From: a virus
IMG/VR virus record: IMGVR_UViG_3300009285_000012
Direction: 5' to 3' (one strand)
DNA: 49,804 bases
This document shows positions 3,310-49,262 of this stretch, one piece after another. The notes below the pieces were generated by a model, which searched no databases, was not told the origin of the DNA, and saw only the letters and a list, made by a program, of their open reading frames with translations. A program made the position numbers and the translations under genes. The stretch's first letter is position 1; the number at the start of each line of letters is the position of its first letter.

Positions 3310-3336
3310 TTGCTATGTTAATTAATGATATAAAGG
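3310..3336. promoter_or_regulatory. Palindromic-motif copy (one degenerate arm)
   Basis: TTGCTATGTTAATTAATGATATAAAGG. 12 nt upstream of ATG 3297 (minus). Its degenerate arm CTTTATATCA matches that of copy 13538. Confidence 0.65.
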
Positions 3337-3345
3337 AATTAAAGA

Positions 3346-3549
3346 TTAGAGAGTATTAATAGTAGAATATACTACATAGGAAGACCTTTTACTATTAACT
3401 ACTTCCTTGGTTATTGATACTTCAAAACCTGCATCTGTAAAATATTTAGCAGATTTTTTAGCATCTTTTAAAATTCTGTGTGTAGGCTTAAGCTCCCATC
3501 TATTTCCTGAAGAGTGAATAAGCAGTATTGAATAAGATATATTTCTCAT
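3346..3549 (-). CDS. hypothetical protein (67 aa), AT-rich
   Basis: 4-nt overlap with the ligase stop/start region. Co-directional. Confidence 0.5.
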   Translation of the reverse strand: MRNISYSILLIHSSGNRWELKPTHRILKDAKKSAKYFTDAGFEVSITKEVVNSKRSSYVVYSTINTL

Positions 3550-4409
3550 ATTATCCTTACAGCCCTTGAGAAGAGGGGAACTTTAGCCTTGTCACTTAGA
3601 ACCTGGTATTCGACTCTAAGGAATTTTCCATGAATCTCTTCAGGAGCATCAAGCCACTGCCACCAAATCTCCATTCTTTCCTTGTGGGAGAGATGGCCAG
3701 CTCCGACGTTGAATTCAGTGCCCATGTCGTCGATGCAGGTGAATCCTCCTAGCATCTTCTTTCCAGTACCACTAGCTGATATGGCCTCATAGACATTGAG
3801 AATTTGATATTCGTCAGTGCATTTAGGCTTGAATTTCATCATGGCACCAGTACGATGGTTGGTGTAGAGGGAGTCAACATGACGAATGATGAAGCCCTCA
3901 TAGCCATTAGCAATGTAGGCTGAGTAACACTCGTAAACCTGTTCGAGATTGAAGCAGATGTTTGGATCTACAAGGTGGATATGGCCGAGGGATTTAGATC
4001 CTTTGAAGAGATGAGTTAGGGAGATAGAGCGCTCTATTTGAGTGCCACCATTCATGTGGTCGAATAGATGGAGTTGCATCTCAGAGGCTTTAGGATGGAT
4101 GGTAGTCACTGTGGAGACTACTGAGTGGATCTCGGCCCAGGTCCAGCCATGGACGTAGAGTTCTCCGTCGTATTCTCCATCAGGTAAGGAGAGACCAGAA
4201 TGGTTGATGTGAGGGACAGAGGAGATAATTTCAGCAGTGCTGCTCAGGAGGAGGCACCTTCCGTCAGACACGATCATTCTGCAGCGCTCACCGTTTAGTT
4301 TGGGCTGGAGGATGTAGGGGGGACGCCAGATCAGGGGATAGCGCCCCTGATTGAGGAGGCGCTTCTCAGAGAAGGGTTCAGCTAATTGGATGTCAACTCG
4401 TTTAGGCAT
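3546..4409 (-). CDS. ATP-dependent DNA ligase
   Basis: Nucleotidyltransferase motifs in order: I QPKLNGER (Asn replaces the usual Asp of KxDGxR), III DGELYV, IV EGFIIR, V MMKFKPK. Confidence 0.85.
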   Translation of the reverse strand: MPKRVDIQLAEPFSEKRLLNQGRYPLIWRPPYILQPKLNGERCRMIVSDGRCLLLSSTAEIISSVPHINHSGLSLPDGEYDGELYVHGWTWAEIHSVVSTVTTIHPKASEMQLHLFDHMNGGTQIERSISLTHLFKGSKSLGHIHLVDPNICFNLEQVYECYSAYIANGYEGFIIRHVDSLYTNHRTGAMMKFKPKCTDEYQILNVYEAISASGTGKKMLGGFTCIDDMGTEFNVGAGHLSHKERMEIWWQWLDAPEEIHGKFLRVEYQVLSDKAKVPLFSRAVRII

Positions 4410-4651
4410 TACTCTTCCTCCCTATGTATAAGGCAGAATATTTTGACTCCTTCAAGTGTTACACTGGCACAGTCATACTCCAAAGAATGGTGTATGATAT
4501 CATACGCAATGAATTCTTTTAGGAAGGTCGAGGAAGATACATGAATCTCAGCCACTCCAAAAGAACTAGAAAAAGTTAATATGTCAGTAGAATGATCTAA
4601 AGATTTTAGAGTTCTAGCTAACTCGGATAACTTTCTGCGGGATGTAGGCAT
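4409..4651 (-). CDS. hypothetical protein (80 aa)
   Basis: ATG 4651 is preceded by GGGAGG. The stop overlaps the ligase ATG. Confidence 0.5.
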   Translation of the reverse strand: MPTSRRKLSELARTLKSLDHSTDILTFSSSFGVAEIHVSSSTFLKEFIAYDIIHHSLEYDCASVTLEGVKIFCLIHREEE

Positions 4652-4715
4652 TTGGGCCTCCCTCTGAAGCAATGCTCCAGGAATGTTTTTGTTATATTTT
4701 GGTGACACCTAGATT

Positions 4716-4739
4716 AAGAAAATACCCCCCACAGTGGGG
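4716..4739 (-). terminator. Rho-independent terminator candidate after 4777..5172
   Basis: Minus strand reads CCCCA-CTG-TGGGG followed by GGTATTTTCTT. It lies 38 nt after the stop. Confidence 0.5.
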
Positions 4740-4776
4740 AACTGTGAGAGGTATTGGACTATATCTGCAGGGTGGA

Positions 4777-5172
4777 TTAGAACCCAGGAACTCCCAATTC
4801 TTTGAGGTAGGCAGCCTGTTTCTCGGGCGACCAAGTATGGAAGGCAGCCTTGACGGCCTCGACAGGGTTGACCTGAGTCTTTTCGAGGGCGACGCCAAGG
4901 ACATAAGTGGACATGAATTCGGAGATTGCTTCAGCAGTGAGGCCGGCCTTGAGTTTGGCCCGAATGATGCCCTGAATTGCCACACGAGCGTTGGCCTTGT
5001 AGTTGCTGAAGATTACATCGGCGCCAAATTTCTCGGCGGCCAGATCCAGAGTGTCCCCAAGGTCGTATTCGACTGAGGCCTCTTGCCACATTGGTTTTCC
5101 TTCTGCGTCGAGGACGGCAGAATTGTTTTCATCTTTTACTTGATACCGTGCGGAGATTGTTTCTTTTGCCAT
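4777..5172 (-). CDS. hypothetical protein (131 aa), GC-rich moron-like gene
   Basis: ATG 5172 with AAAGGTG SD. Visibly higher GC than its neighbours. Has its own promoter (5241..5269) and terminator (4716..4739). Confidence 0.6.
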   Translation of the reverse strand: MAKETISARYQVKDENNSAVLDAEGKPMWQEASVEYDLGDTLDLAAEKFGADVIFSNYKANARVAIQGIIRAKLKAGLTAEAISEFMSTYVLGVALEKTQVNPVEAVKAAFHTWSPEKQAAYLKELGVPGF

Positions 5173-5240
5173 GTTGAGCACCTTTGGTTAGATTTGGCCC
5201 TGACGGGCGATTGGCCGATGGTGGCCGGAAATGAACCCAT

Positions 5241-5269
5241 ATGTTAACATAGAGGGGGGAGGATTGCAA
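5241..5269 (-). promoter_or_regulatory. sigma70-type promoter with extended -10
   Basis: Minus strand reads TTGCAA-17 nt-TAACAT, with TG at -15/-14 (TGTTAACAT). It lies about 60 nt upstream of ATG 5172. Confidence 0.5.
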
Positions 5270-5301
5270 TATCTGGGGAAATTATTTTTATCTTCTCCAT
5301 A

Positions 5302-5484
5302 TCACATAGAATTTAGGCGATAGTTTACCTCGTTTACTACATATTGAAGATCTTCTTTTACGTAGATCATTTCATTAGATGTTAGGATGAGAGTATTTTC
5401 CCCATCAGAGGATAGGGATACTACCCAGACTGCATTGATGAAGATGGGGCGTGAGTCCAGTTTGTGAAGTTCCATTAGATCCAT
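5302..5484 (-). CDS. hypothetical protein (60 aa)
   Basis: Starts 1 nt after the upstream stop. Co-directional. Confidence 0.45.
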   Translation of the reverse strand: MDLMELHKLDSRPIFINAVWVVSLSSDGENTLILTSNEMIYVKEDLQYVVNEVNYRLNSM

Positions 5485-5485
5485 G

Positions 5486-5929
5486 TTAGTCTCCTAACTT
5501 AGAGGTGAAATCTTTGAGGAGGTCGGCCACCAGAGAGGCTTGCTCCGTTGAGGAGAGTTCCTCGAAGAGGGCTTTCATCTTGGTTTCTATTACTACTTTT
5601 TTGTCAGTGGAGGCTGCTCTAGACACTTTCTTAATCTTACCTTGGAGCTCAGCCTCTCGGATGATCAGAGCTCGGTCAAGTTCAGTGAGGCGTTTAACCT
5701 CATCTGCTGCGACCTCAAGCTCGTGATAGAGAGTCCTTCTCCAGCAGGTTGCATCAGCCAATTCTGCCTTCACCCCGGCGAGGATAGGACGGAGTTCAGA
5801 TAGGTAGATTATCTTAGAAAGGAATTGCTTTGTTAATTTATGATACATAGCATTCCCATTTTGAGGAACTGCGTTCCGCTCATCGATAGAAGATTGGGCT
5901 AGAGGATCGTAAGGGGCGGAGTAGGTCAT
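5486..5929 (-). CDS. hypothetical coiled-coil protein (147 aa)
   Basis: AAGGA SD 7 nt before ATG 5929. Contains an in-frame copy of the palindromic motif (codons AMYHKLTKQ). Confidence 0.55.
   Translation of the reverse strand: MTYSAPYDPLAQSSIDERNAVPQNGNAMYHKLTKQFLSKIIYLSELRPILAGVKAELADATCWRRTLYHELEVAADEVKRLTELDRALIIREAELQGKIKKVSRAASTDKKVVIETKMKALFEELSSTEQASLVADLLKDFTSKLGD
5825..5851. repeat. Palindromic-motif copy inside CDS 5486..5929
   Basis: Plus strand TTGCTTTGTTAATTTATGATACATAGC. 5824..5854 is 31/31 identical to 40910..40940. Confidence 0.85.
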
Positions 5930-5942
5930 ATTAGGATCCTTG

Positions 5943-6158: not shown

Positions 6159-6257
6159 TTAGATTCCTTAGGTAAGATTAGTATTGAGGCATACCACTAA
6201 GATACCAGTATGTGAGCCAGGTTAGAGAGGTTGTCCAGAGGAGGATGTAGAAGTATT

Positions 6258-7412: not shown

Positions 7413-7462
7413 AGAAAGCTCCTTAGGCCTTTTAGTGTCATGCCTAGGACCATTGGAGAGGG

Positions 7463-7810: not shown

Positions 7811-7893
7811 ATGTTACACCCATTTGGGCCATTTGGCAATACCTAAAGGATAAATATTATTAGGCCTGCGGCCTAGGTTAGAGAGTGGGTGGA

Positions 7894-7922
7894 TTGCTAC
7901 GTGTCATTTTGATACATAGCAA
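7894..7922. promoter_or_regulatory. Palindromic-motif copy (A+A type)
   Basis: TTGCTACGTGTCATTTTGATACATAGCAA. The inverted repeat extends to GGATTGCTA...TAGCAATCC (7891..7925). Intergenic. Confidence 0.8.
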
Positions 7923-9821: not shown

Positions 9822-9848
9822 TTGCTATGTTAATTAATGATACATAGG
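9822..9848. promoter_or_regulatory. Palindromic-motif copy
   Basis: TTGCTATGTTAATTAATGATACATAGG. Intergenic, 68 nt upstream of ATG 9753 (minus). Confidence 0.85.
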
Positions 9849-9857
9849 AATTCTCCT

Positions 9858-11357: not shown

Positions 11358-11370
11358 AGCTGACCTCCTT

Positions 11371-11397
11371 TCCTATGTGTCATTAATTAACAAAGCA
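11371..11397. promoter_or_regulatory. Palindromic-motif copy
   Basis: TCCTATGTGTCATTAATTAACAAAGCA. 13 nt upstream of ATG 11357 (minus). Reversed A/B orientation relative to most copies. Confidence 0.75.
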
Positions 11398-11451
11398 TTC
11401 CCCCTTTCCTCATAATGCCCATGTGATAGCCTACTCCACCTTTCTTCCTCT

Positions 11452-12221: not shown

Positions 12222-12248
12222 TTGCTATGTATCATAATGATACATAGG
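12222..12248. promoter_or_regulatory. Palindromic-motif copy (A+A type, perfect palindrome) in the divergent control region
   Basis: TTGCTATGTATCATAATGATACATAGG. 12225..12247 is a perfect 23-bp palindrome centred on 12236. GGTACC sites at 12186 and 12281 are equidistant from that centre. Confidence 0.85.
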
Positions 12249-12347
12249 AAGGGTCTCTTCTGATTGGGCATGATCCAGATGGTACCAATTCAGACTCTGG
12301 GCCTGAGGGCCTGAGGCCAAGGCCTCTTAATGGCGCCAATTCTATCC

Positions 12348-13537: not shown

Positions 13538-13564
13538 TTGCTTTATATCAAAAATTAACATAGG
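13538..13564. promoter_or_regulatory. Palindromic-motif copy (degenerate left arm)
   Basis: TTGCTTTATATCAAAAATTAACATAGG. 15 nt upstream of ATG 13580. Confidence 0.65.
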
Positions 13565-13579
13565 AATCATTATACAAAT

Positions 13580-17464: not shown

Positions 17465-17491
17465 TTGCTTCGTTAATTAATGATACATAGG
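17465..17491. promoter_or_regulatory. Palindromic-motif copy between terL and portal
   Basis: TTGCTTCGTTAATTAATGATACATAGG. Its AGGA lies 7-8 nt before the portal ATG 17500. Confidence 0.8.
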
Positions 17492-17499
17492 AATATACA

Positions 17500-23892: not shown

Positions 23893-23919
23893 TTGCTATG
23901 TATCATTTATTAACATAGG
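23893..23919. promoter_or_regulatory. Palindromic-motif copy
   Basis: TTGCTATGTATCATTTATTAACATAGG. 9 nt upstream of ATG 23929. Confidence 0.85.
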
Positions 23920-23928
23920 AACACAGTT

Positions 23929-25663: not shown

Positions 25664-25690
25664 TTGCTATGTATCATAAATTAACATAGC
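25664..25690. promoter_or_regulatory. Palindromic-motif copy
   Basis: TTGCTATGTATCATAAATTAACATAGC. 34 nt upstream of ATG 25725. Confidence 0.85.
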
Positions 25691-25724
25691 AACTCAATGA
25701 TCTATATTAATCAAAGGTGATAAA

Positions 25725-33209: not shown

Positions 33210-36131
33210 ATGGCACTTTCCTGGGATTCCTTTGACACTCCTGATATAGCAATAGCTCCCTCTGCAGCTCCTACATACTCTAAGCCAGAAGACTACTATT
33301 CTTTGATTGATGAAGTAGCTGGGGTAGAGGGAGTTGATCCACTAGTTCTTAGGAGTATGGTAGATGTAGAGAGTTCCTACAATCCTAAGGCCATTTCCTC
33401 AAGAGGTGCTCAAGGTCTGCTTCAGCTAATGCCAGGGACTGCTAAGGAGATGGGAGTGGTAGATCCTTTCGATCCGAGGCAGAATCTAACTGGAGGAGCT
33501 AAATATCTAAAGCAACAACTGACTGCCCAGGGTGGAGACCTTAGTAAAGCATTGGCTGCTTATAATTGGGGTCCAGGGAATTTGGCCACGGGTGGAGAGT
33601 TGCCTCAGGAGACTTTAAGTTACATTAACAAGATTATGGCCCGGAGTGGTGGGGGGGATGCTTCATTAATTAATGATACAAAGCAACCTCTCTCTAGTGA
33701 TCAATCCTTATCTTGGAAAGATACTGCTAAGCTTGGCTGGGATGATTTTGAATCTCAGGCCTCTCCTAGCACACTTTCTAAAGTGCTTGGGGTCATTGGA
33801 GATGCTGGGGATGTTACTGGGGGGACTCTTGCTGATGCAGTCAACATACAGGATCAGTTGACTCCAGCCATTAAAGAGTCATTCTTAGAGAGTGCTACTC
33901 CTACTAGCCCTATGGGAGAACTTCCCCTAGGTTTAGGTAAGGGTCCAAGCGGTGTGACTGGTGCTGCCCTCGACGTAGCTTATGGAGTTCCAGAAGCAGC
34001 AGCTTCTCTTGCATCAGGAGTAGGATCTTTTATCGGAGGCCAGACTGCAGGACTCAAAGATATTCCCCTAACTGAAGAGGGGATGGCCAGAGCTTTTGAA
34101 ACAGCTGAGGCTGTGAGCAAAGTTGGAACTTATCAGCCGAAGACTGCTACTGGACAACTCTTGATGAAACCTATTGAGTTGACCTTTGGCACCCTCCTCG
34201 GTACAGTTGATAAGATGGCAAGGGCCACAGCCCCTGAGGGGGCCTCTCCTGAGGCATTGGATGATCGTAGTAAAGCGTGGCAGTATGTTACTAATTCTCT
34301 CCTCTTAGGGGGACCTCTTGCAGTTAAAGGTGCTAAGAGTATTCGTCTAACTCCCACAGAGGCTAAGGCTAAATTAACTCCTAAGATTGTAGAGGAGGCT
34401 AAGGCCCAGGTTATGGCTGATCCTACTACTCCTCCTACAGTCAAGGAGCAAGTAAAAGATGTCACTGCAGAAGGGTTGGCTCAGATTATTGGTCAGATAG
34501 ATAGGGCTAGAGCTAATGCAGCTGTGGCCAAGAAAGGCCTAGTGGCTAAGTTCCCTGAGAATCAGGATATAGTTACAGGCCTTCTAGTAGAGGCTGAGCT
34601 TAGGGAGGGTAAGGGAAAGGCCCAGTATAATAAGGTGGCCAAGATTGTTGCTGAGCATCCGGAGTCTGTAGAGACTCTTGATTTGGCAGCTACTAAGGGG
34701 ATTGGTCCGAAGACTAAGTCTAAAATTGAGGAGTTGATTAAGCAGAAAAAGGACTTAAAGGAGAAACTACTTCAGCCTATTAAATCTTCTATTCCTGTAG
34801 ATAGGACTCAGTATTCAGGCCCGACAGTTATTGGAAAGACTGCTGAACCTTCATCAGTTACACCACCTAAAGAGCCTATTAAAACTAGTGGAGATGTAGA
34901 TCCTTACAAGACTGGAGAACTTCGCCCGAGTGAAGTTAATGCTCTAGACCTTCCCCCATCTCCACCTCTGCCTGGGCATGTAAAAATAGGAGAAGATCTC
35001 TATCCTAATGTTAAGGCTTCAGGACCTACAGTTATTGGAGAGTTAGGAAAGGCTCCTGAATCTCTATCACCAGTGGCTACTGAGACTCCTAAGGCTGAAA
35101 CAAAGAGCACTGATGTGCTGACTCCTTCAGAGCCAATAGAACTTCCTACATTTGACAGTATTCAGATTGCTAAAGAGGAGGGGTACTCATTCTCAAGTAA
35201 GAGAACTTTCGTCACCTTGGAGGATGCCCAAGCCTCAGCAGAAAAGAGAGGTCCTGGACATGAGGTGATTCAGGTGGGAGAGAGATTCAGGGTGGGGAAG
35301 TTTACTACTACTGAGATCAGAGAGTTTTCTACACTGGAGGCAGTTAAGGCTGAGTTGGAAGTAGGGTCTGAGATTAGTAGGGATCAGGCCCTGGCTGATG
35401 AGGGCGGGAAGTTAGGTAAGATTGAGTTTGGAGTTGCTAAGGTTGGGGATAAGTATTATAGAACTACTTCCAAAATTGAAAGGCCTAATGAGTTGGCTGA
35501 TGTGGCTCAGTTGGAGAGGGGAGAGAAGGAGGCTGCAAAGCAGAAGGCTATTGATGAGTTGTTTGAAGAAGAGGGATTGTCTATTGAGGAGAAGGTAATT
35601 CTGGAGGGGATGGAGAAGGAATTTGGGCGGTTAGATGGGGATGCCAGGTCTGGGATTAGTGAAGCTGTGAGGAAGGATAAGGAAGTTCAATCTTCTGGGC
35701 CTGCAGTGAGTAGTGCCGAAGCTGCTAAGAAGTTCTTAGAGTGGAGAGATTCCTATGTTAATTTAATTAACAAAGCAAAGCCTTCCAAGAAAGGTAAGAC
35801 TAAGAAGCCTGTCCCCAAAGAAACACTACCAATCCTGAATGATGAATTCGCTACATTCAAGACTCTGGAGGATGCCCAGAAGTTTAAGGAATCCACTGGG
35901 AAGTCAGGCGAGATTATCCAAGACCCTCTGACAAAACAATTTATGATTGAGCCAGAGCTTGATCTTCCTATGGATAAGATAGACTTCTATGATGAAGCAG
36001 TGAGAGATTATGAGGGGGAGAGTAGGAGTGGGAGGTTTGATGAGGAGGGTGTAGATTATGGTGAGAGGTCTTCGGAGAATGGGATTATGAGGGGGAGAGT
36101 AGGAGTGGGAGGTTTGATGAGGAGGGTGTAG
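33210..36131 (+). CDS. internal virion/ejection protein with N-terminal lytic transglycosylase (SLT) domain, apparently truncated by the 77-nt duplication
   Basis: VESSYNPKAISSRGAQGLLQLMPGTAKEMG...GGAKYL...AAYNWGPGN. Internal repeats (SGPTVIG x2, F.TLEDAQ x2). Carries two motif copies. Confidence 0.85.
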   Translation: MALSWDSFDTPDIAIAPSAAPTYSKPEDYYSLIDEVAGVEGVDPLVLRSMVDVESSYNPKAISSRGAQGLLQLMPGTAKEMGVVDPFDPRQNLTGGAKYLKQQLTAQGGDLSKALAAYNWGPGNLATGGELPQETLSYINKIMARSGGGDASLINDTKQPLSSDQSLSWKDTAKLGWDDFESQASPSTLSKVLGVIGDAGDVTGGTLADAVNIQDQLTPAIKESFLESATPTSPMGELPLGLGKGPSGVTGAALDVAYGVPEAAASLASGVGSFIGGQTAGLKDIPLTEEGMARAFETAEAVSKVGTYQPKTATGQLLMKPIELTFGTLLGTVDKMARATAPEGASPEALDDRSKAWQYVTNSLLLGGPLAVKGAKSIRLTPTEAKAKLTPKIVEEAKAQVMADPTTPPTVKEQVKDVTAEGLAQIIGQIDRARANAAVAKKGLVAKFPENQDIVTGLLVEAELREGKGKAQYNKVAKIVAEHPESVETLDLAATKGIGPKTKSKIEELIKQKKDLKEKLLQPIKSSIPVDRTQYSGPTVIGKTAEPSSVTPPKEPIKTSGDVDPYKTGELRPSEVNALDLPPSPPLPGHVKIGEDLYPNVKASGPTVIGELGKAPESLSPVATETPKAETKSTDVLTPSEPIELPTFDSIQIAKEEGYSFSSKRTFVTLEDAQASAEKRGPGHEVIQVGERFRVGKFTTTEIREFSTLEAVKAELEVGSEISRDQALADEGGKLGKIEFGVAKVGDKYYRTTSKIERPNELADVAQLERGEKEAAKQKAIDELFEEEGLSIEEKVILEGMEKEFGRLDGDARSGISEAVRKDKEVQSSGPAVSSAEAAKKFLEWRDSYVNLINKAKPSKKGKTKKPVPKETLPILNDEFATFKTLEDAQKFKESTGKSGEIIQDPLTKQFMIEPELDLPMDKIDFYDEAVRDYEGESRSGRFDEEGVDYGERSSENGIMRGRVGVGGLMRRV
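33659..33685. repeat. Palindromic-motif copy inside CDS 33210..36131 (degenerate arms)
   Basis: TGCTTCATTAATTAATGATACAAAGCA, encoding DASLINDTKQ. Confidence 0.6.
35751..35777. repeat. Palindromic-motif copy inside CDS 33210..36131 (B+B type)
   Basis: TCCTATGTTAATTTAATTAACAAAGCA, encoding SYVNLINKA. Confidence 0.6.
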
Positions 36132-40910: not shown

Positions 40911-40937
40911 TTGCTTTGTTAATTTATGATACATAGC
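40911..40937. promoter_or_regulatory. Palindromic-motif copy abutting the PolA stop codon
   Basis: TTGCTTTGTTAATTTATGATACATAGC. 40910..40940 is identical to 5824..5854. Confidence 0.85.
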
Positions 40938-40938
40938 A

Positions 40939-43476
40939 TTACACAATGGTAGGAAGCCATCTGTCGGTACATTCATAATACTTTTGTTCAAGATATTCAG
41001 GTTCAAATGAATTAATATCTAAAGAACATGAGGATCTGTTTGCCTTCTTTATAGTTTTTCCATCTACAGTCTCCCATCCCTCTTCTTTATTTAAACACAC
41101 GCCCATTGTACAATCTACTGGGATTACAAAACGATGTCCGTAATGGGTATAAAGTGGAGTTTCAAGACTCCTTCGGATGTCAGTGAGTACTCGACTGTGA
41201 TCTGCCCATGAGACAGGAGTTGTTGGATGCAGTGGGGTGGGGATTTGGAATCCGATTTGATCGTGCACTTGAATGCAGAGTTTAACGAAGCGGAAGTGAT
41301 CATCTCGGTTGTAGTAGACAAAGTTGAGTCCTCGCTCATCGATGATATCTCCAACTGTTCCCTGAGGGATGCAGGCATAGGCATCCTTGTAAAGCTGGTC
41401 GTCAATTTTGTCTGTGAATACAGTCTTTCGATCCAACAAGTTGGTGATTGTCCTGTTCTTATTGATGCACATTTTGACATATGAGTGGAATCCATCTCTA
41501 ACTCCTGGGTATGCTTTGTGATAGATGTCGACAATGACTTTGCCGTCTCTGTCGGTGATTTCATTATATAGGGAGAAGGTCTTATAGCCAAGGTCATAGT
41601 TAAGGCCATGATTAGCTTTCTTGCCCCAATCTCGCCAGGTCTTTTTCCCGTCGCCTATGGGAGCTTTAACTATCTTGGGATTGAAATCCTCTGGGAGTTT
41701 ACCTTGATAGAAGATGTTAGCCATGATACGTGCGGTGAGTCCATGGATATCCATCTTCATCTCAAATGCGTTGATCATCTCAGTAATGCGTCCTACATAG
41801 GCGACTATCCTATTCTCAGCCTGACTTAAGTCCATTCCGTAGAACACGTGGAAGGGGTCTGCCAAGAAGTGTGTAAGAACCCGATGGGGTTGATTCTGAA
41901 GATTGTTACCTGTCCCGAATATATTTTCGCTGCTTGAAGCCCTTGAGAATCGAGTACCGACAGGGTTGTATGAACATCGCATTCTTCCATCATTGTCAAC
42001 TTTAGCAGTGTCGAGAAAAGTGGCTCGCTCCTTACTAAGGCCGCGTATTTTAAGGATAAGCGAGGCCTCTGGGTAACCTTTGCGGGCAATTCGTTTGAGT
42101 GCCTTTTCATCAGTTGTGTCTCCCCCCTCCCTATTTTTATACGCGGGAAGGCGTTTGGTCTTGTAGAAGTAAGTGGCAACTTGTTTCGGAGAGTTGGGAT
42201 TAAGATCAAAGCCACACTTCTGATGCAATTCTTTGAGAGTGTCTTCAATCTCATGGCCCAACTCATCTGAGGCCTGTTGCATGGAACCAGTGTTGATACG
42301 AATTCCGTTTTCCATGATGTAGACGTAGGGAAGGATAGACTTTCTCTTCCTCTCATAAGCATAGTAGTTGTGCTGCTTAAATAGGGATTCCATCTGCTTG
42401 GGGTAGGCATCGCTACAGACCACTGAGTCTAGAGCATTATATCTCCACCCACCATCCCAGCTCCCTATACCTTTAAGCCAATACTTACCATCATCCTTAT
42501 AATAAGGTATATCAGTATAAAGAGAGCAAATGAAATGCAGTCCAACAGGATAGTCTGGAAGTAAGGTCTTTTGCGCAACCATCGTATCATGGATGTTAGT
42601 AGTTTTGATTCCATATTTTCGAAGCATGTAGTGGCAATCGAATACCAGGTTCTGTCCCAGGATTGGGATTTCAGGATCTTCGAGGATCTTAGCAATTTCA
42701 ACCAGGATGGCGGCCTCCTGAGGGAGGGTGAAGTAGTCTCCACCTTCTCCTACGAAGGGGATACTGATTACTTCGGTAGGAGAGTAAGCAAAGGAGATGC
42801 AAGTCATCTCACCGTTGAAAACGTCTACCTCGATATCATAGGCAATGGGATTACCTAACTTGCCGTACAACTTACAGATGTTCAAGAAATTGAGGGATTG
42901 AGAGTAAGTGGGCCGGATGACTATGTGGCGATCTAGAGGATTCCATTTACCCTCAACTACTTTCCTAGCTCTGAGGAGATCATATATGAGGAGACGCTTA
43001 TTAGTGTACTGGTTCTTTGGAGGGATGATCGTACTTGGATGGATAGAAGGGATTAGTTTCTTCCCACTAACCAGAGTAGGACTAAGCACAGAACCCCTCC
43101 AACGAGTGACCCCAGTGCGATCGGCCAGAGCAAACAGTGCAGTGTTGCCGAGAGCGATGATAACTTTTCCTTCAAGCTCATTGATTTCTTTAGCAAGTTC
43201 ATTTATATACTCCTGGCCTAAGGTTGAGATTACAGGACCTTTCCTGGGGTTGAACTCAATATAGGCCCCTAGGACTCTGTCTGCATCTTTTATGACATTG
43301 GTATAGTACACATCCGCTCTGTTGATCCCTGCGATACGGAGGTTATCTTCAAACTCCATACCTGCAGGGCCACAGAATGGGCGTCCCTTGATTATTTCAG
43401 TTCTGCCTGGTTGCTCACCTACCACAATGTAGGGAGCATCTTTTCTACCACATGGCGCCACGTAGGTTGATCTCAT
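40939..43476 (-). CDS. family A DNA polymerase with N-terminal family-4 UDG-like domain and 3'-5' exonuclease domain
   Basis: UDG motifs GEQPG and HPS. Exo motifs IAYDIEVD, NLVFDCHY and YNALDS. Pol motifs A DLSQAENRIVAY, B KKANHGLNYDLGY and C IQVHDQ. Confidence 0.9.
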   Translation of the reverse strand: MRSTYVAPCGRKDAPYIVVGEQPGRTEIIKGRPFCGPAGMEFEDNLRIAGINRADVYYTNVIKDADRVLGAYIEFNPRKGPVISTLGQEYINELAKEINELEGKVIIALGNTALFALADRTGVTRWRGSVLSPTLVSGKKLIPSIHPSTIIPPKNQYTNKRLLIYDLLRARKVVEGKWNPLDRHIVIRPTYSQSLNFLNICKLYGKLGNPIAYDIEVDVFNGEMTCISFAYSPTEVISIPFVGEGGDYFTLPQEAAILVEIAKILEDPEIPILGQNLVFDCHYMLRKYGIKTTNIHDTMVAQKTLLPDYPVGLHFICSLYTDIPYYKDDGKYWLKGIGSWDGGWRYNALDSVVCSDAYPKQMESLFKQHNYYAYERKRKSILPYVYIMENGIRINTGSMQQASDELGHEIEDTLKELHQKCGFDLNPNSPKQVATYFYKTKRLPAYKNREGGDTTDEKALKRIARKGYPEASLILKIRGLSKERATFLDTAKVDNDGRMRCSYNPVGTRFSRASSSENIFGTGNNLQNQPHRVLTHFLADPFHVFYGMDLSQAENRIVAYVGRITEMINAFEMKMDIHGLTARIMANIFYQGKLPEDFNPKIVKAPIGDGKKTWRDWGKKANHGLNYDLGYKTFSLYNEITDRDGKVIVDIYHKAYPGVRDGFHSYVKMCINKNRTITNLLDRKTVFTDKIDDQLYKDAYACIPQGTVGDIIDERGLNFVYYNRDDHFRFVKLCIQVHDQIGFQIPTPLHPTTPVSWADHSRVLTDIRRSLETPLYTHYGHRFVIPVDCTMGVCLNKEEGWETVDGKTIKKANRSSCSLDINSFEPEYLEQKYYECTDRWLPTIV

Positions 43477-43637: not shown

Positions 43638-43645
43638 AAAATTAC

Positions 43646-43672
43646 TCCTATGTTAATTAATGACACGTAGCA
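43646..43672. promoter_or_regulatory. Palindromic-motif copy
   Basis: TCCTATGTTAATTAATGACACGTAGCA. 8 nt upstream of ATG 43637 (minus). Confidence 0.8.
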
Positions 43673-43676
43673 GGCC

Positions 43677-43934: not shown

Positions 43935-44533
43935 TACATTATCCCCCTACTTCGAAGTTCAAAGAAACATTCCATAGTACCTCGGACATCAACCAGGGCA
44001 TCATGAGCCCCTTCGAAGGGCTTGTTGAAGAGGATCTTGTAGAGTTCTTCCAGTTTGGGAAACTTATTCCCTTTCTTGCCGGAGGGAAATGGAAGATGGC
44101 AGAACTCAATAGTAGATTTCATAGTGCAATAGTATGGCATTTCCAAAATGTCTGCCATATCTATCTCTGCACTCTCCCCTACCTGGGCCGCGAGGATTCG
44201 CATCAGGCGGATGTCAAAATTGAAGTTATGACAACAGAGGGCCTCAGCATCTTCGGTGAGGGAGAAGAAAGCATTGAAGGCATCTTTGGGTTCTATGCCC
44301 TTAGAGTTAGCTTTTTCACTGGTGATACCGTGAGCAGCCAAGGCCTTAGGATGGATTGGTTTGTCTCCAATTTTGATTAGAGTTTGGTAAGCTTCTAATT
44401 CCTCACCTTCAGAGGTTGCCAGAATACAGCCCAGTTGGAGAACTTTAGGCTGAGAGGGATCGGCAGAGCGGGCCTTAAAATTAGGGAGGCCAGTTGTCTC
44501 AGTGTCGAAAAAGAGGATAGTGTTAGTTGACAT
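43934..44533 (-). CDS. DnaQ-like (DEDDh) 3'-5' exonuclease
   Basis: Exo I FFDTETTGL, Exo II CCHNFNFD, Exo III HDALVD. Start ATG 44533 with GGAG SD. Confidence 0.85.
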   Translation of the reverse strand: MSTNTILFFDTETTGLPNFKARSADPSQPKVLQLGCILATSEGEELEAYQTLIKIGDKPIHPKALAAHGITSEKANSKGIEPKDAFNAFFSLTEDAEALCCHNFNFDIRLMRILAAQVGESAEIDMADILEMPYYCTMKSTIEFCHLPFPSGKKGNKFPKLEELYKILFNKPFEGAHDALVDVRGTMECFFELRSRGIM

Positions 44534-45875
44534 TTTGAGTCTCCAGGTAAGATTTAAGTTGAACAATGTAGCCTTCTTTGAATTCACGAGTAAGATCATT
44601 ACCGAATGAGGATACTTGACAGGTGTGAGAGGCCATTAGACTAACTCCAGAGCCAAGGAAAGGGATGTAAGCTTGTTGGCCAGGTCTGCAGAAAGTACTG
44701 AAGAGTTCCACCATCAGAGGGAGGGGGCGCTGAGTTGGGTGAATCTTCTGGGATGGGGGCATAGGAGTGAATTCAAATACGTTGGCCCGCCCTGCCTTGT
44801 TGAACTTAGGCTGGCCCTTACGGCAATAGAAGAAAGGCTCATAGCAGTTGGCGAATTGGGATTCGGGTTGCATCGTCTGGCCATTAGGTTTGAGCCACAT
44901 TCCGGGAAGTGTGTTCATTTTGAATCCAGTCCCCTTGAGCCACTCACTGATGGGGAAGAACCAGGGGTCCATAGCGAACCAGCAGACTAACCAAGAGTCC
45001 GGGCGGAGGATACGATAGCATTCTGAGAAAAGCTTTACCATAAACTCTGCATACTCTTTTACTTCGATCTCATTATAGCCTAGCATTACAGAGTCAGCCT
45101 TCTTGGAGTGCAGGTCCATTGCATAAGGTGGGTCTATTTCAATGAAGTCCATAGTGTTGTTGGGCATCTGGGAGAGGGTCTTAAAGCAGTCCCCCACTAT
45201 GTAAGCATCATAGAGGCGCTTGAAGATTTTGTTAGTAGTGCCCATTTCCTTGGTAAACTGTTCTGACTTTACGGAGTTGGTTAGTTGGCGACCAATGGAG
45301 TTAAGCATCTTCAGTGCATCGGACTTGTTCTTGCACTTGTCCAAGCCGATCTCTGGGAATTGTTCCATAGCTGATGCAAGCTTCAGATCTTTGGAGAGAT
45401 TAGCTGGGGTCTCTTGCAAGAGGCGAGCCGTATCAGCTTGGGACCATCCTAAGGCGTCAGGAGCTTTAGAGTGCTTAGGCCCATGGATTTCAATCTGCAG
45501 ATCATTTATCTGCTTTTTGAGGGAAATCTCCTCGACATAACTCATTTCCTTTCTATCGAGATTCTCTGCCAGCTCTATGGATCGATAGTCAAGTTCCGTA
45601 AGTGGTTGGTCATATACCTTGGCCGGCACAGTCATCCAGCCCATCTCAGTGATAGCAGCCATGCGACGGCCCCCAGCTAGGAGGGTGTACTTCTTGTCAC
45701 CTTTCTGATTGATCTTGAGAGACTCTGTTAGACCTACAGCAATTGGAGTGATGAGGCCATTCTTAGTGATAGAGTATTTGAATTGCTTCAAGTCTCCATA
45801 ATCCTTACGGAATCTCTCTCCTATGTCAATATCTGAGAGGAGGATGTGAAGGAGTTGGGATGTGTCTACTTTCAT
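44523..45875 (-). CDS. ParB-N domain + HTH + N6/N4 DNA methyltransferase fusion
   Basis: ParB box LLAGGRRMAAI. ParB-type HTH GWSQADTARLLQETPANLSKDLKLA. MTase motif IV IEIDPPY followed by motif I PFLGSG (beta-class order). Confidence 0.85.
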   Translation of the reverse strand: MKVDTSQLLHILLSDIDIGERFRKDYGDLKQFKYSITKNGLITPIAVGLTESLKINQKGDKKYTLLAGGRRMAAITEMGWMTVPAKVYDQPLTELDYRSIELAENLDRKEMSYVEEISLKKQINDLQIEIHGPKHSKAPDALGWSQADTARLLQETPANLSKDLKLASAMEQFPEIGLDKCKNKSDALKMLNSIGRQLTNSVKSEQFTKEMGTTNKIFKRLYDAYIVGDCFKTLSQMPNNTMDFIEIDPPYAMDLHSKKADSVMLGYNEIEVKEYAEFMVKLFSECYRILRPDSWLVCWFAMDPWFFPISEWLKGTGFKMNTLPGMWLKPNGQTMQPESQFANCYEPFFYCRKGQPKFNKAGRANVFEFTPMPPSQKIHPTQRPLPLMVELFSTFCRPGQQAYIPFLGSGVSLMASHTCQVSSFGNDLTREFKEGYIVQLKSYLETQNVN

Positions 45876-47481: not shown

Positions 47482-47667
47482 TTAAGATCTCCTAATTGTT
47501 GAGAAGAGTTGCCTCTTGTATTCCGCATCCACAGAGGCTAGCCACTGAGGAGGGGAGTCCAGTTTCTCTCTACATGAGATGCAGGCAACTTTACGCTTGT
47601 ATACTTCTACGTGCATCATAGGGAACTGTTTGTGACAAACTTGGCAGAAATCCATTTGCATAGGCAT
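47482..47667 (-). CDS. zinc-ribbon mini-protein (61 aa)
   Basis: CQVC...CISC. Confidence 0.5.
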   Translation of the reverse strand: MPMQMDFCQVCHKQFPMMHVEVYKRKVACISCREKLDSPPQWLASVDAEYKRQLFSTIRRS

Positions 47668-47669
47668 GG

Positions 47670-47852
47670 CTAGACTCCTAGAATTGTTTCAGGAATTTCT
47701 GCCTGGCAGCAATCACAAGATACATGAGAGTCCTTGGTTATGTCACTGTTGATGAGGAGAGTAGGGTCTTTGATCAGCTCCTTTACTGCACAGGAAAAGC
47801 AAAGATCCTTAGAGAGGGTCTTGTAATAGATAGTTATAGATACTTCAAACAT
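47670..47852 (-). CDS. Cys-containing mini-protein (60 aa)
   Basis: CFSC...CDCC. Confidence 0.45.
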   Translation of the reverse strand: MFEVSITIYYKTLSKDLCFSCAVKELIKDPTLLINSDITKDSHVSCDCCQAEIPETILGV

Positions 47853-47861
47853 AGGGACTCC

Positions 47862-48092
47862 TTAGCAGAATTCTCCAGATTGCATTTTCCTCTCCATATC
47901 TAGGCCAGGGTGGTTACGATCTACACACCTGTAACACAGAGGGGGATGAGGAGTTCCGTTGGTCAGTTGGACACCACAATCTGGGCAGTGATATTTGTCA
48001 ATTGGGTGACCTTTCATCTTTTCAGGATGCTCGGAACACCTGGCCGGTTTTAGCATGAAGACACTATCTCGACATCGGGGGCAGATTTCCAT
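47862..48092 (-). CDS. zinc-ribbon mini-protein (76 aa)
   Basis: CPRC...C..H...CPDC...CYRC. Confidence 0.5.
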   Translation of the reverse strand: MEICPRCRDSVFMLKPARCSEHPEKMKGHPIDKYHCPDCGVQLTNGTPHPPLCYRCVDRNHPGLDMERKMQSGEFC

Positions 48093-48282
48093 CTTCCTTC
48101 TCCTGCTTTATGAGTACGACCTCTGACCTCAGACAACCGTCCAGCTTTGCTCCGCTATCGGGGAGTTTGTTCTTCATAACAGAGCACCATTCCCAATCCT
48201 TGAACTTACCGAAACCTGGCCCTTTATAGAAACAATCCTTGCATCGTAAGCCATCAGGAACTTCAATCGCTATCATTGCCAT
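48064..48282 (-). CDS. Cys-containing mini-protein (72 aa)
   Basis: CKDC...C...C. Confidence 0.45.
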   Translation of the reverse strand: MAMIAIEVPDGLRCKDCFYKGPGFGKFKDWEWCSVMKNKLPDSGAKLDGCLRSEVVLIKQEKEDGNLPPMSR

Positions 48283-48308
48283 TTGATTACTCCTCTCGTT
48301 TGATAACT

Positions 48309-48554
48309 TTATAATCCAGCCGCAATGCGGACCTTACCAGTACAGGATGGACATAACAACCATTGATGACAAGCTATATGGTTCTGTTGGCTACTTAATG
48401 TTAAAGCGCTCCAGCCATTATTTAGACAATCAATGTCAATGGTTCCCTCGAATTCCTCCTTATTTCTACAATTACGACAAGTTAACTGGGTATAACTCTC
48501 CTTTTCTACTTTAGTAATAACTTTTTCTTTGGTAAAATGATAAATAGCCGGCAT
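48309..48554 (-). CDS. zinc-ribbon mini-protein (81 aa)
   Basis: CRNC...CPSC. Confidence 0.5.
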   Translation of the reverse strand: MPAIYHFTKEKVITKVEKESYTQLTCRNCRNKEEFEGTIDIDCLNNGWSALTLSSQQNHIACHQWLLCPSCTGKVRIAAGL

Positions 48555-48558
48555 TTGA

Positions 48559-48774
48559 CTACTCCTTTCGTTTAAGTTCGAAATGGAATACCATATCCTT
48601 ATCGACTCGGAGGGTCATAATCAAACTGCCTGTATTATCTATTTCTTCCGATGGGATCGATACTTTTCCTCCTAATCTACGGAGAAAAACCAGCAATAGC
48701 TGATCCTTCAGATTGTCCATAACAGCAGCATGAAGAGGTGATATGCTCCGAGCAGCGTCAATTCCTTCTCCCAT
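48559..48774 (-). CDS. hypothetical protein (71 aa)
   Basis: 1-nt overlap with the upstream gene. Confidence 0.5.
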   Translation of the reverse strand: MGEGIDAARSISPLHAAVMDNLKDQLLLVFLRRLGGKVSIPSEEIDNTGSLIMTLRVDKDMVFHFELKRKE

Positions 48775-49175
48775 TATTTAAACCTCATTTGTCGGTCATC
48801 TCGATAAAAGGAATGATTCCCGATTGTTTTGACGAAGGTCATTGCAGAAGCCCATTTAGGTCTGACTATGTTAGGATTGAAGTAATGGTCTATTTCAGCC
48901 ATATAGTAGCCATCACTCTGATCATCACTAATTTCTTCTGCTATTAAGAGACATTTTCTAAATGTTGCTATGTCTACTTTATGCTTTAAAGGGTTGATAG
49001 ATAAAGTCCAGGAGAACTGTGATGGTGCTAAGACTACTTGCTTAACAGATTGTTTTCTACTTCTGGCCCTATTAAGAACTACATGACATACAGCTCTTTG
49101 GCCCTCATCTGATTCCCCTCTTGCTTCGTGATATACGTTGAGGGCTAACCAGTATAGATCTTCTACATTGTTCAT
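48774..49175 (-). CDS. SleB/CwlJ-type cell wall hydrolase (endolysin candidate)
   Basis: LALNVYHEARGESDEGQRAVCHVVLNR...PSQFSW is typical of the Hydrolase_2 family. ATG 49175 with GGAG SD. Confidence 0.8.
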   Translation of the reverse strand: MNNVEDLYWLALNVYHEARGESDEGQRAVCHVVLNRARSRKQSVKQVVLAPSQFSWTLSINPLKHKVDIATFRKCLLIAEEISDDQSDGYYMAEIDHYFNPNIVRPKWASAMTFVKTIGNHSFYRDDRQMRFK

Positions 49176-49235
49176 ACTAAGCTCCATTTAAGTAAAAGAG
49201 AAGGGCCAGTGATGACCCCTCCCTCGTTAGGTTGA

Positions 49236-49262
49236 TTGCTATGTTAATTAATGATACATAGC
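49236..49262. promoter_or_regulatory. Palindromic-motif copy
   Basis: TTGCTATGTTAATTAATGATACATAGC. Intergenic, about 60 nt upstream of ATG 49175 (minus). Confidence 0.85.

Follow-up and report, generated by a model that had tools for sequence, protein, structure and literature searches.

What are the fifteen near-palindromes that recur along this viral DNA, and what reads them? In this work we have analysed a window of 49,804 nucleotides, the whole stretch under study, in which an earlier note had found fifteen quasi-palindromes by eye.

The element and its placement

All fifteen were confirmed by a pattern scan and a position weight matrix: the window holds exactly 15 copies of TTGCTATGT-N11-ACATAGCAA, each a near-palindrome of 29 bp. 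The sites form a discrete set, since the matrix built from them scores them at 30.4-41.2 bits and the best other position at 4.7 bits. The scan against shuffled sequence proposed earlier (GCTATGT-N11-ACATAGC, at most three mismatches) gave 16 matches versus 1.9 ± 1.3 expected from dinucleotide shuffles, none of 100 of which attained 16; the loose matches at 26533 and 30588 are at chance level and lack the core. In a common 29-nt register eleven of the plus-strand starts first reported stand and four were off by one (11370, 33658, 35750 and 43645 replace 11371, 33659, 35751 and 43646). Information content is confined to positions 1-29, with sharp edges, and the flanks outside these 29 bp show no conservation, including no conserved -35 or -10. 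The half-sites come in two flavours, as had been described, A being ATCAT (at times GTCAT or ATCAA) and B being TAATT. The site at 12222 is A+A, that at 35750 is B+B and most of the remaining sites are hybrids. It also holds that A lies upstream and B downstream, in the sense of transcription, in nine of 12 hybrids (all but 11370, 17465 and 33658), a bias which taken alone is not significant. Of the two arms, the gene-distal one is the more degenerate, and systematically so.

On the minus strand, 3310..3338 (34.6 bits) lies between 3346-3549 and 3082-3297 and reads B-A on the plus strand, with A upstream in the sense of transcription, as in the hybrid 5825..5853 (36.9 bits). Both halves of 7894..7922 (34.8 bits) are A-type (GTCAT/ATCAA), and a terminator-like hairpin (7875-7861) comes next in the sense of transcription. 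The hybrid 9822..9850 (39.3 bits) stands 7 nt past the upstream stop codon, with the next start 68 nt on; 11370..11398 (34.9 bits), a hybrid in the minority orientation, is just downstream of the first leftward gene, 11452-11841. Further minus-strand sites are 40911..40939 (36.9 bits), just downstream of the DNA polymerase gene and 14 nt from the next start codon, 43645..43673 (30.4 bits), upstream of a 54-aa zinc-finger ORF and PolA, and 49236..49264 (37.3 bits), 8 nt past the stop codon of the SSB-like gene 49273-49797. On the plus strand, the near-perfect palindrome 12222..12250 (40.3 bits) occupies a divergent control region and has the TerS-like gene 12422-13015 downstream of it, and the hybrid 13538..13566 (32.4 bits) is followed 13 nt further by the ATG of 13580-13909. 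Site 17465..17493 (36.0 bits) lies between the TerL stop and the portal start, 23893..23921 (36.5 bits) follows the major capsid gene, and 25664..25692, the top consensus match (41.2 bits), comes directly after the upstream stop codon. The only intragenic sites, also on the plus strand, are 33658..33686, with the weakest arms (31.1 bits), and 35750..35778 (38.2 bits), both within gene 33210-36131. We count 13 of 15 sites as intergenic, one more than the 12 reported before, provided that a downstream ATG is the true start of the ORF that covers 5825. Where spacers are long the site adjoins the upstream stop codon and not the downstream start. At 17465, 23893 and 43645 the only Shine-Dalgarno-like (SD) sequence is, as had been noticed, the gene-proximal arm TAGGA(A/G), which precedes the ATG by 6 nt at 17465 (TAGGAA) and by 7 nt at 23893 and 43645 (TAGGAG in the latter).

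Both motif and positions are kept in related phages. The element occurs throughout a large uncultivated phage family with the architecture CT-N3-core-N3-AG, the core being a 13-nt palindrome (positions 9-21). CT and AG (positions 4-5 and 25-26) are invariant across the family, even when the search used the core alone; the cores are lineage-specific. In most lineages a site abuts or overlaps the SD sequence of the next gene. The site between TerL and portal keeps its position in at least 26 related loci, and the portal- and TerS-upstream positions are both retained from the window to a Desulfofustis phage (L002:41274 for the latter). The intragenic site 35750 has its orthologue in L061:18741, which is flanked by the same peptide, AAKKFLEWRD, while the core follows each lineage.

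A ParB-methyltransferase as the probable reader

Which protein could recognize such sites? The evidence points to the product of 44523..45875 (minus strand), which headed the list of candidate binders in the earlier note. This protein of 450 aa joins a ParB N-terminal NTPase fold and a ParB/Noc-type HTH to a beta-class N6/N4 DNA methyltransferase. It keeps the ParB boxes GGRR and ENLDR and the methyltransferase motifs DPPY and FLGSG, and carries the motif WSQADTARLL-x3-PANLSKDLKLA. Its profile matches Noc over residues 4-207 (E 3e-14) and CcrM (E 5e-18), and Foldseek retrieved CcrM (2e-16) and Noc (7nfu, 3e-9). The HTH (residues 144-172, WSQADTARLLQETPANLSKDLKLASAMEQ) is encoded by 45360..45446 on the minus strand; in the AF2 model (pLDDT 86) its recognition helix, 157-172, begins at P157, the position equivalent to ParB R173 and Noc Q158. 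By these features it is a bona fide relative of ParB and has a DNA-binding domain. Every motif-bearing lineage has the protein, the Desulfofustis phage included, and it is the only ParB-type gene product of the window lineage.

Across lineages, the R173-equivalent residue covaries with motif base 9/21. Where the residue is R or H, the base is G in 14 of 16 lineages, and none of 32 lineages with other residues has G there (Fisher p = 2.5e-10); Q is paired with A in 3 of 3 lineages (p = 2e-4) and D with C in one. These counts are partly confounded by shared ancestry and include several lineage calls resting on 1-3 sites. Sister lineages switch residue and base together: L138 (R, G) versus L112 and L116 (K, T), and L113 (H, G) versus L121 and L124 (P, T). 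Two lineages are imperfect, L134 having H with T and L144 having H with mixed T/G. Out of sample, base 9/21 was predicted correctly from the residue in ten of ten new contigs, the predictions having been written before the contigs were fetched. This covariation reproduces the published rule in which ParB R173 hydrogen-bonds guanine 1 of parS and R173Q switches the preference to adenine (PMC7383237). The element also resembles parS itself in 6 of 8 bases per half: related cores are TGTTACAT-A-ATGTAACA and the A half of the window is TGTATCAT, while parS consists of TGTTTCAC and GTGAAACA. However, at 23-29 bp and with an odd centre it differs from canonical parS, which is shorter (16 bp).

From these comparisons we consider it likely that the ParB-methyltransferase encoded by the phage itself binds the 15 elements as parS-like sites. 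It had been suggested earlier that they serve as operators for a dimeric DNA-binding protein of the phage, and they were likened there to the KorB operators of RK2. This is borne out to the extent that the recognition-helix residue of a ParB-family protein covaries with the motif; KorB, too, is a ParB-family protein. The elements would be nucleation sites on double-stranded DNA for a dimer, in which the ParB-type HTH of each monomer would read one half of the 13-bp core. Judging from covariation and homology, the first residue of the recognition helix would contact the outermost core base, 9/21, as R173 contacts guanine 1 of parS. A conserved region of the protein, perhaps its methyltransferase domain, may read the invariant CT/AG.

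What the sites would be for

The ParB NTP-binding boxes are intact, and for this reason the protein probably closes into a clamp at the sites and spreads onto neighbouring DNA, as would be expected from what is known of the family. Some ParB-fold fusions bind ATP or nothing (PMC12704722). The sites would concentrate the fused N6-adenine methyltransferase and spread it over the phage genome, and site-bearing phage DNA would be modified preferentially. If binding is granted, the purpose that we tentatively prefer, at somewhat less than even chances, is that of loading sites for a spreading methylase clamp; a KorB-, VirB- or BisD-like effect on transcription at gene boundaries is possible, if rather doubtful, and the two are not mutually exclusive. 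In favour of spreading or coverage we counted the over-dispersion of the sites in the window (smallest gap 852 nt, P = 0.016), the conserved position of one intragenic site whose core tracks the lineage, and the restriction of the intragenic sites to a spacer-poor stretch. This stretch of 12.8 kb has no intergenic spacer longer than 11 nt, bar one 44-nt gap which is probably an artefact of a 77-bp duplication. Counted against the ParB-methyltransferase reading in general were the hybrids, since a simple homodimer leaves unexplained how very different ATCAT and TAATT halves, mostly joined as hybrids with an orientation bias, go with one ParB-type gene. The polarity relative to transcription, with its degenerate distal arm, is not predicted by a pure loading-site model.

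Could the same protein and sites serve primarily in genome-wide gene regulation, the methylase domain being of lesser importance? Neighbouring genes would then be repressed or activated as the protein binds at the boundary sites or slides away from them. There are known ParB-family regulators whose sites are dispersed, and the likeness would be to KorB with its 12 operators in RK2, VirB at virS and BisD on ICEclc or, for a roadblock, to the stoperators of mycobacteriophage L5. The sites at gene boundaries, the polarity that follows transcription, the retained portal- and TerS-upstream positions and the palindrome within a divergent control region all speak for regulation, and a site abutting the SD in most lineages could have a role in gene expression. 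We nevertheless think regulation as the primary purpose unlikely. It leaves unexplained why ParB is fused to a conserved and, by its motifs, catalytically intact methyltransferase. A sigma70-like -10 is found at a usable distance at only 3-4 sites, no promoter element is conserved beside them, and no KorA-like partner was recognised. Nor does regulation account for the long-spacer sites next to stop codons or for the two sites deep in a gene. Fusion to a methyltransferase, and intragenic sites that are conserved, point to a purpose other than, or beyond, a transcriptional regulon.

Other readings of the element

It is improbable that the sites serve as operators for some other dimeric DNA-binding protein of the phage. 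The TerS-like LuxR-type HTH protein (12422-13015) would be one candidate and a fast-evolving small early protein another, for example one of the zinc-ribbon proteins encoded at 47.4-48.6 kb or the 129-aa protein from 11452-11841. The TerS-like protein has a GerE/LuxR-type HTH kept through to the Desulfofustis phage, and its gene is just downstream of palindrome 12222; many small ORFs are unannotated, and two half-site flavours could mean two proteins. However, a TerS protein usually acts at a single pac site, the motif-bearing lineages share no conserved small HTH protein, and the successful out-of-sample prediction from the ParB residue is not expected of a bystander.

A phage-specific middle or late promoter, used either by the host RNA polymerase together with a phage factor or by a phage polymerase that escaped recognition, is very improbable. 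Like T7-type promoters, the element is highly conserved, recurs about 15 times in a genome, on both of its arms, and takes its orientation from transcription, and the lineage-specific core resembles the specificity region of a phage promoter. The earlier statement that it does not fit sigma70 geometry holds only in part: its length of exactly 6+17+6 bp does match a -35, a 17-bp spacer and a -10, but the hexamers TTGCTA/TAGCAA are poor, the second having no T at -7, and the strongest conservation falls on the wrong bases (C4 T5 and A25 G26). Dyad symmetry has no role in a promoter, and sites stand 6-14 nt from start codons. At 17465, 23893 and 43645 the SD is inside the element, so that a transcript starting downstream would be without it. 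Canonical sigma70-like promoters are present elsewhere, as had been said; we find them at 10892-10864 (minus strand, 12/12 match) and 12348-12376 (plus strand), and no RNA polymerase or sigma gene was found in the window.

With its arms varying without compensation and no conserved -35/-10 outside the 29 bp, the element has the look of a site bound by a dimeric protein on double-stranded DNA, rather than that of an RNA hairpin or of a host promoter. We compared 103 distinct sites taken from relatives, and in these the variable pairs of the outer arms are for the most part broken: 66 sites leave pair 3/27 unpaired, and pairs 6/24, 7/23 and 8/22 are unpaired in 33-37 each, with 0-3 double changes. 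Among 145 sites, pair 3/27 reads C,G in 4 and G.G or C.C in 77. That the element acts in RNA (as an SD-gating hairpin, processing site or terminator), or is a recombination boundary or a mobile repeat homogenised per genome, is scarcely credible: perfect copies do fold well (12222, z = -3.8; 25664, z = -3.1), the inner core has two-sided changes between lineages, and gene cassettes specific to a lineage (4.4-11.4 kb and 46-49 kb) are flanked by sites, but the folding of SD-carrying sites does not exceed that of shuffles (z = +0.8, +0.8 and -0.9), hybrid A+B cores cannot pair, the element has no U-tract or Rfam match, and arms and positions stay constant across lineages with different cores.

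To return to the ParB-methyltransferase and its sites, the system is a new variant of ParB/parS-type systems. For a class of phage proteins that is widespread but uncharacterised, it offers predicted DNA targets, the first of their kind, together with a rule of recognition.

The fifteen sites and the genome that carries them

All fifteen copies of the near-palindrome that the earlier note had picked out by eye are present in the window. When the pattern GCTATGT-N11-ACATAGC was scanned with up to three mismatches, 16 matches were obtained against 1.9 ± 1.3 in shuffled sequence, with none of 100 shuffles reaching 16, and a weight matrix separated the 15 sites (30.4-41.2 bits) from the next best stretch (4.7 bits). 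Once all copies are set in one register, the element measures 29 bp, with the arms TTGCTATGT and ACATAGCAA enclosing a 5+1+5 core; most of the starts proposed in that note hold in this register and four lie one base off. Its description of two half-site flavours, A (ATCAT) and B (TAATT), was also correct, with the site at 12222 being A+A and that at 35750 B+B, and so was the observation that the gene-proximal arm overlaps the Shine-Dalgarno (SD) sequence at 17465, 23893 and 43645. The gene-distal arm carries 1.0-1.1 mismatches per site at positions 6-8 and the proximal arm 0.2-0.67. Placement of the sites is over-dispersed (minimum gap of 852 nt, P = 0.016), and several of them lie 6-14 nt from a start codon. 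Both intragenic sites fall in a 12.8-kb stretch which has no intergenic spacer longer than 11 nt, one 44-nt gap excepted, and this gap is probably an artefact of a 77-bp duplication. The site at 35750 has an orthologue in a relative; the two share an identical flanking peptide, AAKKFLEWRD, and the peptide encoded over the orthologous site is altered to suit the core of that lineage. The duplication itself is an exact tandem one (36006-36082 and 36083-36159), and its length equals that of the terminal overlap of the contig, which suggests an assembler k-mer artefact. With one copy removed, the ORFs 33210-36131 and 36176-38494 fuse into a 1,735-aa ORF without stops, which fits the single giant ORFs of relatives, for example that of 1,937 aa in the contig L061.

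The window comprises a genome of 49,727 bp that was assembled as a circle (positions 1-77 are identical to 49728-49804) and is probably complete. Among relatives with a name, the metagenomic Desulfofustis phage LS06-2018-MD01 (OP947158) is the nearest, its TerL being 47% identical; its record has a similar overlap of 127 bp. Genes are arranged in a leftward block (11841 to 1 and 49727 to 38497) and a rightward block (11898 to 38494), and a bidirectional terminator-like hairpin (AAGGGAGG...CCTCCCTT, 38468-38491) lies exactly where the two converge. The major capsid and portal proteins are SU10-like, the ejection proteins are P22 gp7-like and SLT-domain proteins, and the replication module consists of a family A polymerase with an N-terminal UDG-like domain, a ligase, a PD-(D/E)XK nuclease, an AAA_24 ATPase, ThyX and a dCMP deaminase. 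No integrase, repressor or tRNA was found by gene and domain scans of the window. A nucleotide search of a phage collection gave no relative; many are held in IMG/VR. These sit in MAGs of unrelated phyla, archaea included, so we take the contigs to be mis-binned free phages and do not assign a host from the bins.

Several other features of the genome deserve mention. Within the leftward arm, 10864-10892 (-) matches TTGACA-17-TATAAT at 12/12 positions; further sigma70-type promoters at 12060-12087 (-) and 12348-12376 (+) form a divergent pair around the control region at 11.8-12.4 kb. Given these canonical sequences, the early genes of the phage appear to be driven by ordinary host promoters. 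In the regions 4409-11357 and 46.1-49.2 kb most small genes have no homologue in any related contig, whereas the replication genes on either side are conserved; these regions are hypervariable cassettes with the sites interspersed. Small CxxC zinc-ribbon or C2H2-like proteins (54-81 aa) are encoded in the early region at 47482-48554 (-), 9090-9329 (-) and 43473-43637 (-); their homologues are absent from the related lineages, and a part in host takeover or in regulation is possible for them. An 896-aa protein with two F5/8 type C (discoidin, galactose-binding-like) domains (26187-28877, +), also absent from relatives, is probably a host-recognition protein.

Covariation of the element with a ParB-methyltransferase

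The Desulfofustis phage contains nine copies of TTGCTATGT-CCCAAATTGGG-ACATAGCAA, with arms and spacing as in the window and a different core. Across about 70 related contigs the arms are constant and the inner core varies by lineage (TACAT/TCCAT, TGATT/GGATT, AACAT, TAAAT and others), and at no fewer than 26 loci a site stands directly after the TerL stop, before the portal gene. Distant relatives, in which motifs were found by k-mer and core-symmetry scans after a strict tally of perfect-arm palindromes had failed, retain only CT-N3-core-N3-AG, with a 13-nt palindromic core, and searches with the core alone still recover the CT and the AG at the same offsets. Information content falls to background exactly at positions 0 and 30, and the flanks are without conservation. 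A further 80 contigs with relatives of the ParB-methyltransferase (39-74% identity) all have dispersed dyads of this architecture, with many different cores. A literature search with the arm sequences returned only primers. Two distant contigs carry repeats of another kind: in L042, a TerL relative, seven tandem copies of a 23-bp unit (GTAC(T/C)GTTAATGGTTCGTTAACA, 6653-6791) are unrelated to the dyad and may be an origin or iteron-like array, and in L082, a Syntrophomonadaceae-binned contig (43% identity in TerL), the dyad AGTTC(G/A)TACA-N5-TGTA(C/T)GAACT occurs at 10 positions without the CT/AG frame.

Few proteins are conserved in all motif-bearing lineages. Among them, the 450-aa product of 44523-45875 (-) is a fusion of ParB_N (Pfam, 2e-7) with an N6_N4 methyltransferase and belongs to the PF02195 + PF01555 fusion class. 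Its N-terminal part has the ParB NTPase fold, with box II LLAGGRR and box III IELAENLDRKEM kept in 34 homologues, followed between the two Pfam domains by a ParB-type HTH (WSQADTARLL-QET-PANLSKDLKLA), and its methylase half has DPPY and FLGSG. In a profile search, residues 4-207 matched Noc (E 3e-14), and CcrM was matched with E 5e-18. Foldseek with an AlphaFold2 model (pLDDT 86) placed the N-terminal half near Noc (7nfu, 3e-9, about 210 columns) and the C-terminal half near CcrM (2e-16). Structures of ParB were matched as well. The model has helices at 146-152 and 157-172, the latter being the recognition helix, and in pairwise alignments of most family members residue 157, a proline in the window protein, stands opposite Q158 of Noc and R173 of ParB. 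Oligonucleotide bias gave no clue to the target of the methylase. Another conserved protein, the 197-aa product of 12422-13015 (+), has a LuxR/GerE-type HTH and a C-terminal part like the small terminase of PaP3; no independent evidence points to this TerS-like protein as the one that binds the sites, and the ParB covariation described below accounts for the data. Its gene lies 2.9 kb upstream of TerL in the window, with lineage-specific genes between, and adjoins TerL in the Desulfofustis phage. The conserved 174-aa protein (49273-49797), which is beta-rich with an acidic C-terminus ending in F, was dismissed as a regulator since it looks like a gp2.5-type SSB.

What links the protein to the element is that the first residue of the recognition helix tracks the outermost base of the core, position 9/21. 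With lineages defined as clusters at 75% identity, arginine goes with G in 7/7, histidine with G in 7/9 (one has T and one is mixed), glutamine with A in 3/3 and aspartate with C in the single lineage that has it, and K, P, A, V, I, Y or E goes with T in 27 of 29, the exceptions being a single-site lineage with A and one mixed lineage. R or H thus accompanies G in 14/16 lineages against 0/32 of the others (Fisher p = 2.5e-10), and for Q and A the test gives p = 2e-4. On a neighbour-joining tree, switches are seen between sister lineages: L138 (R/G) against L112 and L116 (K/T), and L113 (H/G) against L121/L124 (P/T). Arginine 173 of ParB is known to hydrogen-bond guanine 1 of parS, and R173Q shifts the preference to adenine (PMC7383237). 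This published ParB/Noc rule is reproduced in the phage lineages, and the geometry fits, as the base contacted lies 6 bp away from the centre of the dyad, compared with 6.5 bp in parS. A search for homologues of the protein yielded 1,196. We then took ten homologues with informative residues and recorded the predictions before their contigs were fetched. All ten were correct: R (two lineages) and H (three) had G, Q (two) had A, D had C, and E and T had T, with several of these calls resting on one to four sites and the lineages not being fully independent. Such success in predicting the motif would be unexpected of a bystander protein. In L165, of the P0060 lineage, which has Asp at the specificity position, C is found at position 9 in 4/4 sites (CTACC CTAAAATATTTAG TCAAG); it is possible that an Asp-cytosine pairing extends the R-G / Q-A code.

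What might the binding be for?

The intact NTP-binding boxes suggest a ParB-like clamp, and we favour the view that the sites would be loading sites for a spreading methylase. This is because the fusion itself needs explaining, because the sites avoid clustering and keep at least 852 nt apart, and because the only intragenic ones fall in the spacer-poor 12.8-kb stretch. The clamp would load solely on DNA bearing the parS-like sites and then slide, bringing the methylase over the phage genome, so that phage DNA would be modified fast and preferentially, either to protect it from host restriction or to set it apart from host DNA. In this case the methylase would make its own contact with the invariant CT/AG flanks or have its first target there; the conserved methylase domain is a candidate reader of them, and A25 would then be a possible target. 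This picture of an NTP-gated sliding clamp for self-targeted epigenetic marking is offered tentatively, as one that may well turn out to be wrong. Two properties of the sites are not accounted for by it, namely that the window lineage has two very different half-sites with an orientation bias, and that the polarity of the arms follows transcription.

Could the sites instead serve regulation in the manner of KorB, VirB or BisD? Such a role is a less favoured rival; in its support, the sites stand at gene boundaries and overlap SD sequences, their positions before the portal and TerS genes are conserved and their polarity is that of transcription. However, in long spacers the site adjoins the upstream stop rather than the next start (7 vs 68, 8 vs 48, 0 vs 32 and 22 vs 173 nt), which suggests that the SD overlap is partly an effect of packing. 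As to features of a KorB-type regulon, a -10-like hexamer at a usable distance downstream (16-18 nt) accompanies only 3-4 sites, and no KorA-like protein was detected among ORFs of which the small ones are poorly annotated. The order in the long spacers, in the direction of transcription, is the site, a terminator-like GC hairpin and the next gene; such hairpins lie at 7861-7875 (-), about 12320-12335 (+), about 9795-9810 (-) and about 49200-49225 (-).

We also considered that the element acts as RNA, as an SD-sequestering hairpin, a processing site or a terminator, and rejected this because its pairing is not kept by compensatory changes. Of 145 oriented sites, 49 have G-C at pair 3/27, 36 have C.C, 41 have G.G and 4 have C-G; at pair 7/23, 56 have C.A and 1 has C-G, and at pair 8/22, 53 have A.C and 2 have A-U. 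In a set of 103 distinct sequences, the outer pairs that vary fail to pair in 33-66 cells and show 0-3 double changes. Two-sided changes between lineages do occur in the inner core, which would be expected equally well from a dimeric protein, and 11-35 cells per pair are still unpaired there. The SD-bearing sites fold no better than shuffles (z of +0.8 to -0.9), and the sites have neither a U-tract nor an Rfam match.

Promoter readings fared no better. A sigma70 promoter has in its favour the 6+17+6 geometry and the TTAACA within the B half, yet the -7 T is missing from TAGCAA, the bases under the strongest conservation (C4, T5, T9 / A21, A25, G26) are at odds with a -35/-10 logic, and no conserved promoter element was found flanking the sites. 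A class I/II activator site of the Ogr/Mor-like form TGT-N12-ACA is rejected since many sites are 6-14 nt from the ATG, which makes a downstream -10 impossible. The bases that a MotA box, an extended -10 or a central -10 requires are not conserved across lineages. A promoter for a phage RNA polymerase, T7-like or N4-like, lacks its enzyme: Pfam and PHROGs scans of about 85 window ORFs found neither an RNA polymerase nor a sigma factor, the polymerase domain being absent from all large ORFs and from 55 smaller ones. Stoperator-type repressor sites were set aside because the sites are dyads and neither an integrase nor a repressor was found.

Resemblance to known systems and significance

Judged from sequence, the pair appears to share the protein side and the specificity rule of ParB and to resemble ParB-parS, Noc-NBS and KorB-OB. 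With ParB-parS it has in common the NTPase fold with GGRR and ENLDR, the ParB-type HTH, a dyad with a TGT...ACA frame and the setting of the outermost half-site base by the first residue of the recognition helix (PMC7383237). Unlike in ParB, a beta-class DNA methyltransferase replaces the C-terminal dimerisation domain, and the site is 23-29 bp long with an odd centre and an invariant outer CT/AG, present in 15 copies over a phage genome of about 50 kb and not as a cluster near the origin. The 16-bp parS consensus TGTTNCACGTGAAACA is not matched by the sites, which have a 13-bp core and extra conserved arms. Half-sites TGTATCAT (the window A half) and TGTTACAT nevertheless have 6/8 bases in common with the parS half-site, and the window A half together with related cores such as TGTTACAT-A-ATGTAACA resembles parS TGTTTCAC|GTGAAACA; the element thus appears to be a divergent site and not parS itself. 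The window proteins that were scanned include no ParA, AAA_24 being their sole ATPase, and the LG(R/K)GL motif for ParA interaction is absent from the N-terminus of the ParB-methyltransferase, which argues that this is not a partition system.

Noc of Bacillus subtilis, a ParB paralogue with many sites dispersed over the genome, is the solved structure that comes closest to the N-terminal 210 residues of the window protein, and its Q158-adenine rule recurs here in three lineages. In contrast to our protein, it tethers DNA to the membrane for division-site control, has no enzyme fusion and is not phage-encoded. KorB-OB of RK2, VirB-virS and BisD are ParB-family systems found on mobile elements, in which some dozen palindromic sites are scattered close to gene starts, and KorB, VirB and BisD are CTP-dependent clamps which influence transcription at a distance. 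Those systems have no methyltransferase fusion, no KorA-like partner or consistent promoter geometry was seen in our case, and a regulatory effect is here hypothetical.

Stoperators of mycobacteriophage L5 (cluster A), the CIR repeats of phiC31 and the start-associated sequences (SAS) of cluster K are oriented with transcription or lie just upstream of start codons, but the 13-mers that form stoperators are asymmetric and are bound by a temperate phage's immunity repressor, SAS are not dyads and none of the three is tied to a ParB-fold protein. Like our sites, they are genome-wide short intergenic repeats (PMC4351075). The closest unexplained precedent is the dispersed 17-bp dyad repeat TGTTCGGNNNCCGAACA of cluster O mycobacteriophages, for which a dimeric binding protein was predicted and the function was not known (PMC4351075). 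These repeats also have a parS-like TGTT...AACA frame, are mostly intergenic and partly intragenic, and occur in apparently lytic phages which encode a protein with a ParB-like domain, gp90. The phage family is unrelated, though, with an actinobacterial host, and the repeats were not linked to the ParB-like protein in that study.

A 2025 survey found fusions of the ParB-CTPase fold with N6_N4 methyltransferases to be enriched in phages and prophages, where they are among the commonest ParB-like proteins; it gave no DNA target or function beyond 'perhaps anti-defence' (PMC12704722). Neither the dispersed cognate sites nor the recognition rule that we propose appears in that survey, and within the literature searched we found no paper on cognate sites for phage ParB-methylase fusions. 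For such fusions there is now a predicted target in the form of dispersed CT-N3-core-N3-AG dyads, of which 15 have exact coordinates in the window genome, together with a candidate binder and a one-residue recognition rule (R/H-G, Q-A, D-C, others-T) which was upheld in ten new lineages and for which natural variants are at hand for testing. The 17-bp palindromes of cluster O and similar older puzzles may be explained in the same way. If the sites do load a spreading methylase, this would be a new use of the ParB CTP switch, in which a DNA-modifying enzyme is aimed at self DNA. If their role is regulatory, a KorB-like global regulator would be added to lytic phages.
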